Source: Escherichia coli (GTDB lineage: Bacteria > Pseudomonadota > Gammaproteobacteria > Enterobacterales > Enterobacteriaceae). Taken from it: a stretch of 64,000 bases of DNA. Location of the stretch: the NCBI RefSeq assembly GCF_003334785.1, contig NZ_QOWV01000002.1; one strand, given 5' to 3'. Below are positions 5,408 through 51,637 of the stretch, in pieces. Below the pieces are notes generated by a model. It searched no databases and was not told the origin of the DNA. It was given only the letters and a program-made list of their open reading frames with translations. The translations under genes and the position numbers were made by a program. How positions within the stretch are numbered: the first letter of the stretch is position 1; each line of letters begins with the position of its first letter.

Positions 5408-7570
5408 ATGACAGAAAAAGTAAAACAACATGCCGCTCCGGTAACGGGCAGTGATGAAATCGATATTGGTCGCCTGGTCGGCACCGTCATTGAAGCGCGC
5501 TGGTGGGTGATTGGCATCACCGCTGTATTTGCCCTCTGTGCCGTGGTTTACACCTTCTTCGCCACGCCGATTTATAGTGCCGACGCACTGGTACAAATCG
5601 AGCAAAACAGCGGCAATTCGTTAGTGCAGGACATTGGTTCGGCATTAGCCAACAAACCGCCTGCATCGGACGCCGAGATCCAGTTGATTCGTTCGCGTCT
5701 GGTGCTTGGTAAAACGGTGGACGATCTCGACCTCGATATTGCGGTGAGCAAAAACACGTTCCCGATTTTCGGTGCGGGCTGGGATCGTTTGATGGGACGT
5801 CAGAACGAGACGGTGAAAGTGACCACCTTTAACCGCCCGAAAGAGATGGCGGATCAGGTGTTTACGCTTAATGTGCTGGACGATAAAAACTACACCCTGA
5901 GCAGTGATGGCGGCTTTAGCGCCCGTGGACAAGCGGGCCAGATGCTGAAAAAAGAAGGCGTCACGCTGATGGTTGAAGCCATTCACGCCCGCCCGGGCAG
6001 TGAGTTTACCGTCACCAAATACTCCACGCTGGGGATGATCAATCAACTGCAAAACAGCCTGACGGTAACGGAGAACGGCAAAGACGCAGGCGTACTGAGC
6101 CTGACTTATACCGGTGAAGATCGCGAACAGATCCGCGACATTCTTAATAGCATCGCCCGTAACTATCAGGAACAAAATATTGAGCGCAAATCGGCGGAAG
6201 CGTCGAAAAGCCTCGCTTTCCTCGCGCAACAGTTACCGGAAGTACGTAGCCGCCTTGATGTTGCCGAAAACAAACTGAATGCCTTCCGTCAGGATAAAGA
6301 TTCTGTTGATCTGCCGCTGGAAGCGAAAGCGGTGCTCGATTCGATGGTGAACATCGACGCGCAGTTGAACGAACTGACCTTTAAAGAGGCGGAAATCTCC
6401 AAGCTGTACACCAAAGTTCACCCGGCGTACCGCACGCTGCTGGAGAAACGTCAGGCGCTGGAAGACGAAAAAGCCAAACTTAACGGTCGCGTAACGGCGA
6501 TGCCGAAAACCCAGCAGGAGATTGTCCGTCTGACCCGCGATGTCGAGTCTGGTCAGCAGGTCTATATGCAACTGCTGAATAAAGAGCAGGAGCTGAAAAT
6601 CACCGAAGCCAGCACCGTCGGCGATGTGCGCATTGTTGACCCGGCAATCACTCAGCCTGGTGTGCTAAAACCGAAGAAAGGGCTGATTATCCTTGGGGCG
6701 ATTATTCTTGGCCTGATGCTCTCTATCGTGGGTGTGCTGCTGCGCTCGTTGTTTAATCGCGGCATCGAAAGCCCGCAGGTGCTGGAAGAACACGGTATCA
6801 GCGTCTATGCCAGCATCCCGTTGTCGGAATGGCAGAAAGCGCGCGATAGCGTCAAAACCATCAAAGGGATTAAACGCTATAAACAGAGCCAGCTACTGGC
6901 GGTGGGGAATCCAACCGATCTGGCGATTGAAGCCATCCGCAGTCTGCGTACCAGTCTGCACTTCGCGATGATGCAGGCGCAGAACAATGTGTTGATGATG
7001 ACCGGGGTTAGCCCGTCAATCGGTAAAACCTTTGTCTGCGCCAACCTGGCGGCGGTGATCAGCCAGACCAATAAACGCGTGTTGTTGATCGACTGCGATA
7101 TGCGCAAAGGCTACACCCACGAGCTGTTGGGCACCAATAACGTCAATGGCCTGTCGGAAATTCTGATTGGTCAGGGCGATATTACTACCGCAGCTAAACC
7201 GACCTCTATTGCCAAATTTGACCTGATCCCGCGCGGTCAGGTGCCGCCAAATCCTTCTGAACTGTTGATGAGCGAACGCTTTGCCGAACTGGTGAACTGG
7301 GCGAGTAAAAACTATGACCTGGTGTTGATTGATACGCCGCCGATTCTGGCAGTGACCGATGCGGCAATTGTTGGTCGTCATGTCGGAACCACATTAATGG
7401 TGGCGCGTTATGCGGTCAACACATTGAAAGAAGTGGAAACCAGTCTGAGCCGCTTTGAGCAAAACGGTATTCCGGTGAAAGGGGTGATTCTGAACTCCAT
7501 CTTCCGCCGCGCCAGCGCGTATCAGGATTATGGCTATTACGAATACGAATATAAGTCGGATGCGAAATAA
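5408..7570 (+). CDS. wzc: Tyrosine autokinase / polysaccharide co-polymerase Wzc
   Basis: Start at MTEKVKQ (internal Met of ORF 5372..7570); Walker-A-like GVSPSIGKT; C-terminal tyrosine cluster YQDYGYYEYEY. Confidence 0.95.
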   Translation: MTEKVKQHAAPVTGSDEIDIGRLVGTVIEARWWVIGITAVFALCAVVYTFFATPIYSADALVQIEQNSGNSLVQDIGSALANKPPASDAEIQLIRSRLVLGKTVDDLDLDIAVSKNTFPIFGAGWDRLMGRQNETVKVTTFNRPKEMADQVFTLNVLDDKNYTLSSDGGFSARGQAGQMLKKEGVTLMVEAIHARPGSEFTVTKYSTLGMINQLQNSLTVTENGKDAGVLSLTYTGEDREQIRDILNSIARNYQEQNIERKSAEASKSLAFLAQQLPEVRSRLDVAENKLNAFRQDKDSVDLPLEAKAVLDSMVNIDAQLNELTFKEAEISKLYTKVHPAYRTLLEKRQALEDEKAKLNGRVTAMPKTQQEIVRLTRDVESGQQVYMQLLNKEQELKITEASTVGDVRIVDPAITQPGVLKPKKGLIILGAIILGLMLSIVGVLLRSLFNRGIESPQVLEEHGISVYASIPLSEWQKARDSVKTIKGIKRYKQSQLLAVGNPTDLAIEAIRSLRTSLHFAMMQAQNNVLMMTGVSPSIGKTFVCANLAAVISQTNKRVLLIDCDMRKGYTHELLGTNNVNGLSEILIGQGDITTAAKPTSIAKFDLIPRGQVPPNPSELLMSERFAELVNWASKNYDLVLIDTPPILAVTDAAIVGRHVGTTLMVARYAVNTLKEVETSLSRFEQNGIPVKGVILNSIFRRASAYQDYGYYEYEYKSDAK

Positions 7571-7584
7571 CGACGCCTGCATTC

Positions 7585-7635
7585 GCACCGCCCCGTAGGC
7601 CGGATAAGGCGTTCACGCCGCATCCGGCAAGCAAA
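7585..7635. repeat. REP unit between wzc and wcaA
   Basis: ggccggataaggcgttcacgccgcatccggc REP-type palindrome. Confidence 0.5.
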
Positions 7636-18104: not shown

Positions 18105-18215
<111 letters not shown>

Positions 18216-18293
18216 ACCGAGATGTAAATAACGACAAAAACAAAATTGGCCGTTTCGGTCAGGGCCAACTATTGCCTGAAAAAGGGTAACGAC

Positions 18294-22593: not shown

Positions 22594-22619
22594 GTTGCTG
22601 TTTTCGGTTCCGACAACGG

Positions 22620-22808
22620 TTGCCGGATGCGGCGTAAAACGCCTTATCCGTCCTACGGTTCTGTGCTCGGGACCTGTAGGCCTGATAAGACGCGTCAGCG
22701 TCGCATCAGGCACTGAATGCCGGATGCGGCGTGAACGCCTTATCCGGCCTACGGTTCTGTGCTCGGGTCTTGTAGGCCTGATAAGACGCGTCAGCGTCGC
22801 ATCAGGCA
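22620..22808. repeat. Tandem BIME: two near-identical units of about 100 bp, each with a pair of inverted REPs
   Basis: Motif gccggatgcggcgt.aacgccttatccg.cctacggttctgtgctcggg.cctgtaggcctgataagacgcgtcagcgtcgcatcaggca occurs twice in tandem. Confidence 0.75.
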
Positions 22809-22868
22809 AAAAGCGGCAACGAACAAAACAAACGCAGCCTCACCTGGCATCAAATTTATGAGGAAAAA

Positions 22869-49290: not shown

Positions 49291-50190
49291 TCACTCCATC
49301 ATCTTCTCAATCGGCAGGACCAGAATCGAACTGGCACCCAGCGCTTTCAGTTTTTCCATCGTTTCCCAGAACAGGGTTTCACTGCTGACCATGTGCATCG
49401 CTACGCGTTGTTGATCACCCGCCAGCGGCAGAATGGTTGGGCGTTCGGCACCAGGCAGCAGGGCGATGACTTCATCCAGGCGTTCGGTCGGTGCGTGCAT
49501 CATGATGTATTTTGATTCGCGCGCCTGGATCACACCCTGAATACGGGTCAGCAGTTTGTCGATCAGTTGCTGTTTGGATTCTTCCATTTCGCCATCGCGC
49601 TGGATAAGGCAGGCTTTCGAGCGGTAGATAACTTCGACTTCGCGCAGGCCGTTTGCTTCCAGCGTGGCACCGGTGGAAACCAGATCGCAAATCGCATCCG
49701 CCAGTCCGGCACGCGGGGCAACTTCGACAGAACCGTTCAGTAAGCAGGATTTAAAAGAGATGCCTTTCTGGTCGAGATAACGCTTGAGCAGGTGAGGATA
49801 AGAGGTGGCGATACGTTTACCGTTTAAGGAGAGCGGGCCGTCCCAGGCTTCATCAACCGGCGTTGCCAGCGAAAGGCGGCAGCCGCCGAAATCCAGACGA
49901 CGCAAGGTAAAGTAGCGCGGATCTTCACCCTGGGCGAGGCGGTTAAGCAGCTCTTCTTCCAGCACGTTTTCGCCGATAATCCCAAGGTCTACCACGCCAT
50001 CCATTACCAGACCGGGAATGTCGTCGTCACGCACGCGCAGAATATCAATCGGCATGTTTTCTGCCATCGCGATCAGGCGCTGGGTGTGAAGATTGATTTT
50101 AATACCACAGCGCGCCAGCAATTCACGTGAGTCATCACTTAAACGGCCGGATTTCTGCATAGCTATGCGTAAACGAGTGTTGTCTGTCAT
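49291..50190 (-). CDS. hisG: ATP phosphoribosyltransferase
   Basis: Start at [17 protein letters not shown] (internal Met), 299 aa. Confidence 0.95.
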
Positions 50191-50234
50191 TTTCTTATTC
50201 CTCTTTAAACCTGTCTGAACCGTTATCAATCGCG

Positions 50235-50272
50235 CAATAAAAAAGCCCCCGGAAGGTGATCTTCCGGGGGCT
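50235..50272 (-). terminator. his attenuator terminator hairpin
   Basis: Minus strand reads agcccccggaag-atcac-cttccgggggc followed by UUUUUUAUU, between hisL and hisG. Confidence 0.85.
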
Positions 50273-50335
50273 TTCTCATGCGTTCATGCACCACTGGAAG
50301 ATCTGAATGTCTTCCAGCACACATCGCCTGAAAGA

Positions 50336-50386
50336 CTAGTCAGGATGATGGTGATGATGGTGGTGTTTAAATTGAACGCGTGTCAT
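50336..50386 (-). CDS. hisL: his operon leader peptide (MTRVQFKHHHHHHHPD)
   Basis: Minus-strand 16-codon ORF with seven consecutive His codons upstream of the attenuator. Confidence 0.9.
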   Translation of the reverse strand: MTRVQFKHHHHHHHPD

Positions 50387-50600
50387 AAAAGTCTCTGTGA
50401 ATGTTTATTCAACTGATGTCTTTTAACCTAAACCACTTTCACGTTAGAAAGCAAGGGCTTTTTTATATATTTTATGGCAATGGATTTGTTTAATGAATGA
50501 GCGGGGAAAGGAGGGGGCCTGGAGTGACTACGTTAGAAAAGTAATCGTGAAAATATGTCTTTAAAACCCTCAAGAACATTGTGTTCTGTAACTAAAGTGG

Positions 50601-50712
50601 GATTTGTTCCTGCCGGATGCGGCGTGAATGCCTTATCAGGTCTACAAATATTGCCTAAATTCAATGTATTGATGTTTTTGTAGGACTGATAAGCGGAGCG
50701 CATCAGGCAATT
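50601..50712. repeat. REP cluster in the hisL-yeeZ intergenic region
   Basis: gccggatgcggcgtgaatgccttatcagg ... gactgataagcggagcgcatcaggc REP-type palindromes. Confidence 0.55.
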
Positions 50713-50812
50713 GTATATTTGCTAACAGTTTCGATTTCATTCATAGAATGAATTGTCAGTTTTGATACGCTAGCGTAGCCTTATAGATCTAAGGTGTATC
50801 AGGAGATAACGG

Positions 50813-51637
50813 ATGAAAAAGGTCGCAATTGTCGGGTTAGGGTGGTTAGGCATGCCGCTGGCGATGTCACTTTCAGCGCGAGGCTGGCAAGTCACCGGGA
50901 GTAAAACCACACAAGATGGTGTCGAAGCGGCCCGAATGAGTGGCATTGATAGCTATCTGCTTCGCATGGAGCCTGAGTTAGTTTGCGATTCTGACGATCT
51001 GGATGCCCTGATGGATGCCGACGCGCTGGTCATTACGCTTCCGGCACGTCGTAGCGGCCCCGGCGATGAGTTCTATTTACAAGCGGTACAAGAGTTAGTG
51101 GATAGCGCGCTGGCCCATCGTATTCCCCGAATTATTTTTACCAGCTCAACGTCTGTCTATGGCGACGCGCAAGGCACGGTGAAAGAAACCACCCCGCGTA
51201 ATCCGGTGACCAACAGTGGACGAGTATTAGAAGAACTCGAAGACTGGCTGCACAATTTACCCGGTACTTCGGTCGATATTCTGCGTCTTGCGGGGCTGGT
51301 CGGACCGGGGCGTCATCCCGGACGCTTCTTTGCCGGAAAAACCGCGCCTGATGGTGAACATGGTGTTAATTTAGTCCATTTAGAAGATGTTATTGGCGCT
51401 ATCACTCTGTTGTTACAGGCACCTAAAGGCGGACACATCTATAATATATGTGCGCCAGCTCACCCTGCGCGTAATGTTTTCTATCCGCAGATGGCCCGTT
51501 TACTGGGGCTTGAACCTCCGCAGTTCAGAAATAGTCTGGACAGCGGCAAAGGTAAGATTATTGATGGCAGTCGGATTTGTAATGAACTGGGATTTGAATA
51601 CCAGTATCCCGATCCGCTGGTAATGCCGCTGGAGTAA
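50813..51637 (+). CDS. yeeZ: NAD(P)-binding epimerase/dehydratase-family protein YeeZ
   Basis: 274 aa; N-terminal VAIVGLGWLG Rossmann motif. Confidence 0.85.
   Translation: MKKVAIVGLGWLGMPLAMSLSARGWQVTGSKTTQDGVEAARMSGIDSYLLRMEPELVCDSDDLDALMDADALVITLPARRSGPGDEFYLQAVQELVDSALAHRIPRIIFTSSTSVYGDAQGTVKETTPRNPVTNSGRVLEELEDWLHNLPGTSVDILRLAGLVGPGRHPGRFFAGKTAPDGEHGVNLVHLEDVIGAITLLLQAPKGGHIYNICAPAHPARNVFYPQMARLLGLEPPQFRNSLDSGKGKIIDGSRICNELGFEYQYPDPLVMPLE

Follow-up and report, generated by a model that had tools for sequence, protein, structure and literature searches.

Chromosomal toxin-antitoxin (TA) modules have been described as horizontally transferred cassettes, consisting of a promoter and the TA genes without a terminator, that insert into intergenic regions (Ramisetty & Santhosh 2016, as cited in PMC5120126). 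In the same paper, yeeZ of Escherichia coli K-12 is thought to be co-transcribed with the yefM-yoeB pair (PMC5120126). In O157:H7 Sakai, no yoeB or yefM lies between yeeZ and hisL and REPs have been reported in the spacer (Iguchi et al. 2011, PMC3158064), and a 2023 survey found YoeB to be absent from ST11 (PMC10790755). O-antigen switching that also moves the hisL-yefM-yoeB-yeeZ segment has been documented as well (PMC5359238). As for the repeats, BIME-1 elements, also called RIP or RIB, pair a y REP with an inversely oriented z1 REP; they are defined as single-copy units whose long L linker often contains an IHF site (PMC3333891). The polymorphism considered here is already published, and the locus is an ordinary one with two forms. 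We describe its state in a stretch of 64,000 nucleotides from E. coli contig NZ_QOWV01000002.1 (assembly GCF_003334785.1), which is referred to as the window throughout. With a probability of roughly 85%, the window carries the TA-free, REP-bearing allele of a two-form E. coli intergenic locus, and within Escherichia that allele predates the other.

The interval of interest separates two divergent transcription units. On the minus strand lies hisG (49291-50190), the first structural gene of the his operon, assigned from its ORF and from the RefSeq annotation of VE-F10, a genome 100% identical to the window here. It is preceded by the his operon leader/attenuator RNA (50237-50360, minus strand), which matches the full-length Rfam model RF00514 (His_leader) with 131.6 bits and an E-value of 2e-23. 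The hisL leader peptide, MTRVQFKHHHHHHHPD, is encoded at 50339-50389 on the same strand; it was recognized by reading the sequence and from the RefSeq annotation, and it overlaps the Rfam His_leader match. Upstream of hisL, positions 50390-50469 (minus strand) comprise the hisL 5' region together with what we take, from established knowledge of the his promoter, to be the his promoter region; the gapless alignment of this part with Salmonella and Citrobacter ends near 50469. On the plus strand, yeeZ (50813-51637; ORF and RefSeq annotation) encodes an SDR-family oxidoreductase or putative epimerase, begins at the RefSeq start of the 100%-identical genome and is 98.9% identical in DNA sequence to K-12 yeeZ; yeeY and plaP follow downstream, also on the plus strand. 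The yeeZ-proximal 50736-50812 (plus strand) is common to both alleles, being 100% identical to K-12, and holds the yeeZ Shine-Dalgarno sequence and a palindrome, TTCATTC-ATA-GAATGAA (50736-50752), that multiple alignment shows to be kept in Salmonella and Citrobacter.

Between the two start codons there are 423 bp (50390-50812). The first-pass annotation had given this interval as about 426 bp, which is nearly right and becomes exact if the hisL ATG is counted. An Rfam scan by E-value across 50000-51000 returned no structured RNA besides the His leader; the other hits in that range fell over the attenuator/terminator hairpin, far under their gathering scores, and were discarded. No intrinsic terminator was found in the interval. 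Two short, exact or near-exact direct repeats are shared by the his promoter region (50416-50450) and a unique segment of the interval that is described below (50530-50565): ACGTTAGAAA occurs at 50441 and 50530, while a second, near-exact repeat, ATGTCTTT(T/A)AA, occurs at 50416 and 50555, with the two repeats in swapped order. These may simply be chance matches in AT-rich DNA. Overall, the interval is a divergent his/yeeZ control region with a non-coding BIME, and it encodes no TA function.

The absence of yefM-yoeB, which the first-pass annotation had reported together with the lack of any ORF of antitoxin or toxin size, was confirmed by several searches. The longest ORFs of the interval measure 56, 42, 32, 30 and 29 amino acids, compared with 83 for YefM and 84 for YoeB, and the three longest overlap the REP pair. 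None of these five ORFs of at least 29 amino acids matched an NCBIfam family at E<=1. With K-12 YefM as the tblastn query against the whole 64 kb, the best E-value was 0.7, with no match inside 50390-50812, and with K-12 YoeB it was 0.95; the sole YoeB match near the interval is a 12-amino-acid chance match within yeeZ. The yefM operator has the sequence TGTACAATGAACTGTACA in K-12, and its half-site TGTACA is absent from both strands of 50390-50812. The idea of hidden or degraded TA genes was rejected on these tblastn, operator motif and NCBIfam searches, all of which were negative. The K-12 gene order behind the annotation's remark, yeeZ-yoeB-yefM-hisL, is borne out in NC_000913, where yeeZ and hisL lie 867 bp apart.

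Aligned to that K-12 locus, the window shows the same neighboring genes and flanks that are identical without exception, namely 132 bp next to hisL (50387-50518) and 77 bp next to yeeZ (50736-50812). The boundaries of the difference are thereby placed at 50518 and 50736, with alternative DNA in each allele. Between the shared flanks, the two alleles are unrelated: the window has 217 bp (50519-50735) and K-12 has 658 bp. The next six bases of K-12, TAAGAG, are those of E. albertii and of Escherichia MOD1-EC7003, so that by comparison with E. albertii-type sequence the junction falls after 50524 and the lengths become 211 bp (50525-50735) and 652 bp. Thus, the 652-658 bp in which K-12 has the yefM promoter/operator, yefM and yoeB (b2017/b4539) have as their counterpart in the window 211-217 bp of non-coding DNA that bear a BIME. 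The K-12 cassette opens with 150 bp that hold the promoter/operator, continues with yefM and yoeB and runs 5 bp past the stop, which puts the yoeB stop codon 5 bp from the shared yeeZ-proximal sequence and gives yeeZ a different upstream context in each allele. It fits the "promoter + TA, no terminator" unit described in PMC5120126, and the yefM-yoeB genes have a GC content of 44% against 48.5% for the window. The site in the REP allele is not simply empty, since each allele carries DNA unrelated to that of the other. Its first 92 bp (50519-50610) form the unique, non-repeat part, which is single-copy in the window. This segment was considered as a structured or repeated element and rejected, given a fold z-score of +0.2 and no second copy in the window.

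The left junction of K-12 (about 2350-2372 of the K-12 locus, corresponding to window 50518-50525) lies in a perfect 10-bp inverted repeat with a 1-nt spacer, CTAAGAGGAC-T-GTCCTCTTAG. The first seven nucleotides of this repeat, CTAAGAG, are ancestral and are also found in the REP alleles of E. albertii and MOD1-EC7003. Microhomology accompanies both junctions, GACT at the left and AACAG at the right. Together, the palindrome at the left junction and the microhomology may be a signature of cassette insertion.

The repeats reported in the interval are genuine. REP1, TGCCGGATGCGGCGTGAATGCCTTATCAGGTCTAC (50611-50645, plus strand), ends in CTAC and is a partly decayed palindrome that matches the REPs at 7595-7629 and 22718-22752 of the window with 91% identity over 35 nt (E 1e-8). 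REP2, GTAGGACTGATAAGCGGAGCGCATCAGGCAAT as read on the plus strand (50677-50711, minus strand), is inverted with respect to REP1, its plus strand showing GTAG and then the palindrome. The hairpin of REP1 alone is weak (z = -1.6), weakened by substitutions in the window copy, and that of REP2 reaches z = -2.4. The 113-nt REP-linker-REP unit, on the other hand, folds as one long inverted repeat with z = -4.3, a value that none of 200 shuffles equaled; its two arms, 50632-50648 and 50677-50693, pair with 88% complementarity. Imperfect palindromes, GTAG/CTAC tetranucleotides and further copies in the window all identify these sequences as REPs. The interval contains one such unit and no tandem array. 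The earlier statement that the gap is filled with REP repeats is right about their presence and wrong about their extent, with the REP pair covering about 101 of 423 bp.

Between the two REPs lies a long linker of 31 nt (50646-50676) that contains ATCAAnnnnTTG. A pattern search located an IHF-like core, ATCAATACATTG, on its minus strand at 50662-50673; the full IHF consensus, WATCAANNNNTTR, was not matched. The short-linker BIMEs found in the window at 18105-18225 and 22600-22830 have linkers that do not align with this one. The complete unit, including the linker, matches a second chromosomal locus, cmoB-torZ, at about 81% in hundreds of genomes. Judged by the published definition (PMC3333891), the element between hisL and yeeZ is, on its sequence, BIME-1-like with a putative IHF site. 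It shares with BIME-1 the single copy, the inverted REPs with GTAG/CTAC and, apparently, the long linker, here of 31 nt, and its whole unit aligns with the cmoB-torZ BIME; it differs in that REP1 is partly decayed and in that it sits between divergent promoters instead of at the 3' end of an operon. Any role of the BIME at this site, be it IHF or gyrase binding or topological insulation between the divergent promoters, would be putative. Elsewhere in the window, REP/BIME clusters occur at 7595-7629, 18122-18206 and 22621-22808; these are short-linker, multi-copy clusters in the colanic-acid/O-antigen part.

The position of the right junction may have a bearing on yeeZ. A consensus scan found one sigma-70-like site, CTAACA-16-TAGAAT (50722-50749, plus strand), that straddles the allele junction, such that its -35 hexamer is specific to the REP allele and its -10 hexamer is common to both alleles. 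The -10 motif (TAGAAT/TAGTAT) is conserved to Salmonella and Citrobacter. This single site compares with 2.1 expected by chance, and shuffled sequences gave more, so as a yeeZ promoter it is a candidate to be treated as a lead only. At that same level, the arrangement suggests that yeeZ regulation may differ between the alleles. In addition, the shared palindrome at the start of the yeeZ-proximal region could be an operator for the neighboring LysR-type regulator YeeY.

The population survey covered 5,426 complete E. coli genomes. The TA cassette is present in 4,218 of them (about 78%) and is always chromosomal. The REP-allele segment is found at a coverage of at least 80% in 1,197 of the 5,426 genomes, or in 1,194 with a larger query, and its carriers include BL21, ATCC 8739 and O157:H7, which match a 226-bp allele-specific query at 97.8%, 96.9% and 95.4%, respectively. 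E. coli W is judged to be a carrier too, from a 24.9-kb query reaching across the interval that is covered there to 99%. The yeeZ-hisL alleles of Sakai, BL21 and ATCC 8739 have the same gene order and the same TA-free, REP-bearing spacer as the window and differ from it by point differences only. Copies of the TA allele, for their part, differ among E. coli genomes by as much as about 3%. When the REP-allele segment is searched across these genomes, its matches outside the locus are confined to the BIME. One match to the region falls on a plasmid-labelled record. The closest genome, AST198 (NZ_AP043606.1), is 100% identical over 24.9 kb and carries an O6-family O-antigen cluster. In the window, positions 26000-50900 comprise an O6-family O-antigen cluster (with wzy annotated as O6 family) that is 98.4% identical to E. 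coli W.

Exclusivity of the two alleles was examined with a chimeric query in which the 92-bp REP-allele marker was joined to the TA cassette. This query matches 5,410 genomes at 5,417 places, which means that at most seven genomes could carry both alleles; TA duplicates alone gave 10 extra places in the TA-cassette search. The two alleles are practically mutually exclusive, and it follows that genomes with the REP allele keep no K-12-like yefM-yoeB elsewhere. The remainder of this strain's genome probably lacks the pair as well, an expectation carried over from population exclusivity at the sensitivity of megablast, which misses distant paralogues. Both the TA cassette and the 92-bp marker are missing from about 16 of the 5,426 genomes, and these may represent a third state or a disrupted locus.

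Beyond E. coli, the comparison drew on 75 hisL loci of GTDB species representatives that were collected with a degenerate hisL pattern, one genome per species; E. fergusonii, E. marmotae and E. ruysiae are not among them under those names. At the loci of about twenty Enterobacteriaceae genera outside Escherichia, neither YefM nor YoeB was found next to hisL. Genera in which hisL adjoins yeeZ include Salmonella, Citrobacter, Enterobacter, Kluyvera, Raoultella, Kosakonia and Leclercia, and the spacer of Salmonella and Citrobacter is 162 bp long and TA-free. The Salmonella, Citrobacter and Enterobacter spacers resemble the window in their divergent hisL and yeeZ, in the lack of TA genes and in the conserved promoter-proximal sequence on both sides; they differ in their length of only 162 bp and in being without an insert of about 266 bp and its BIME. 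By multiple alignment, this Escherichia-specific insert, absent in Salmonella and Citrobacter, occupies 50470-50735, with junctions that are uncertain by a few bases, and it lies directly upstream of the his promoter region, which is itself conserved. In K-12, the initial 49-55 bp of the insert (50470-50524) are retained before cassette DNA begins, a pattern that insertion of the cassette into an already existing REP allele would produce. It was also considered whether the right-hand junctions of the Escherichia insert and the TA cassette fall at exactly one position and so mark a reused hotspot. This idea was dropped since the coincidence lies within alignment ambiguity: it is also possible to align Salmonella TTTCG-TATTT with window 50729-50739, and the older junction then falls about 7 bp further left.

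Within Escherichia, BIME-bearing spacers of 424-426 bp that are collinear with the window occur in E. albertii, Escherichia sp. E1V33, MOD1-EC7003 and 'E. coli' E69. The last of these is a separate GTDB species representative despite its E. coli label, and its hisL (CP089930.1, about 7040-7057) begins with ATGGTACGC (Met-Val-Arg) and not with ATGACACGC (Met-Thr-Arg). Across these four lineages, the window-specific 50519-50735 is 87-97% identical and its unique 92-bp part 87.5-96.7% identical, while the flanking genes show 94.8-97.3% (hisG) and 92.4-94.9% (yeeZ). Since the divergence of the REP allele is in line with that of hisG and yeeZ, the segment is orthologous and vertically inherited. 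Among the non-coli Escherichia loci retrieved, only that of E. whittamii has the TA allele. The non-coding 150 bp of its cassette are 92% identical to K-12, and its flanks are 89-95% identical. At this locus (2063-2562), the E. whittamii YefM and YoeB proteins are 100% identical to those of K-12, with two synonymous differences in yefM and seven in yoeB. Conserved TA genes within a diverged cassette point to strong purifying selection or a mosaic history.

How the window came to be without yefM-yoeB can be read in several ways. A TA-free interval at a site where 78% of genomes carry the TA pair looks like a loss, all the more with shared flanks that are 100% identical to K-12, and on this account the lineage would have lost yefM-yoeB in situ, leaving the REP pair as a remnant or a later fill-in. 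A deletion, however, cannot create 217 bp that are absent from K-12. Those 217 bp are orthologous and collinear in E. albertii and the three other Escherichia lineages, with a divergence like that of the flanks; a recent transfer from E. coli would have left near-identity, and the identities are 87-97%. The window interval retains neither a TA remnant nor a TGTACA half-site. In-situ deletion is accordingly very improbable. A second account turns the direction around, taking the TA allele as ancestral and the BIME DNA as its replacement, or else regards both alleles as an ancient cross-species polymorphism of which the direction is beyond recovery. That the non-coding part of the E. whittamii cassette has diverged to the same degree as its flanks would agree with this, as would the species-level diversity that both alleles show within E. 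coli and the left 49-55 bp of the Escherichia insert that are common to both. Against it, the REP allele is found in E. albertii and in three of the four other non-coli Escherichia representatives, and the TA pair in none of the non-Escherichia loci. A source for the fill-in is not evident either, as the 92-bp segment is single-copy in the window and only the BIME part matches elsewhere. Finally, yefM-yoeB is a self-contained module of lower GC content that belongs to a widely mobile TA family (PMC5120126). A reversed or irrecoverable direction appears quite unlikely.

A more recent event has better prospects, even though it is still on balance unlikely. The ancestors of this strain may have borne the TA allele and imported the REP allele through homologous recombination, for instance along with the adjacent O6-family O-antigen cluster. 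K-12 and HS carry the TA allele and BL21 and ATCC 8739 the REP allele within a single phylogroup, which we take to be phylogroup A for all four. The locus adjoins the his/O-antigen recombination hotspot, O-antigen switching that takes this segment along is documented (PMC5359238), and the same O6-type region occurs in E. coli W at the 98.4% noted above. Such an exchange is compatible with the REP allele being the ancestral type; the strain would then be a secondary TA loser. "Ancestral" is a statement about the allele, and the lineage of this strain might have obtained it by homologous recombination. The first-pass annotation had offered two options for the site, ancestrally empty in this lineage or deleted. 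An ancestral TA-free form is supported by E. albertii and the outgroups, but the word "empty" needs refining, the site being occupied by alternative DNA. The evidence speaks against deletion.

The layout of the interval, the allele frequencies and the orthology are direct results. For the preferred reading, in which the TA-free REP allele is the older form, we infer the direction of change and the manner of insertion from the comparisons above. An enterobacterial ancestor would have had a hisL-yeeZ spacer of about 160 bp with two divergent promoters. About 266 bp, including a BIME-1-like element, would then have been gained upstream of the his promoter before the split of E. coli and E. albertii. 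Later, a promoter-plus-yefM-yoeB cassette of about 655 bp without a terminator would have replaced the distal 211-217 bp, BIME included, either in an ancestor of E. coli and E. whittamii or by transfer among both. The product of this replacement would be the allele of K-12 and of about 78% of E. coli, and both alleles may now circulate by homologous recombination beside the O-antigen cluster. The TA allele is itself old, and the parsimony case for this direction rests on few lineages.

A broader possibility combines a long-lived, cross-species polymorphism with the BIME-1, or its neighborhood, as the specific landing site of a transposase-less promoter-plus-yefM-yoeB cassette and with a rewiring of yeeZ, which would be transcribed with a -35 of its own in the REP allele and, in the TA allele, by transcripts running on from the autoregulated TA promoter. 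Possible signatures of such a landing site are the microhomology at both junctions and the 10-bp palindrome situated exactly at the left one. As a whole, the combination is speculative and rather improbable.

For the biology of E. coli, the locus means that about a fifth of genomes, those of BL21 and O157:H7 included, are naturally without chromosomal yefM-yoeB. K-12 should not be taken as the ancestral reference state here, and beyond correct annotation the importance of the finding is small. One possible practical consequence is that the upstream control region of yeeZ differs between the alleles. On the preferred reading, the hisL-yeeZ interval would also serve as a clean worked example of a chromosomal type II TA module that entered a core intergenic region late and can be dispensed with.
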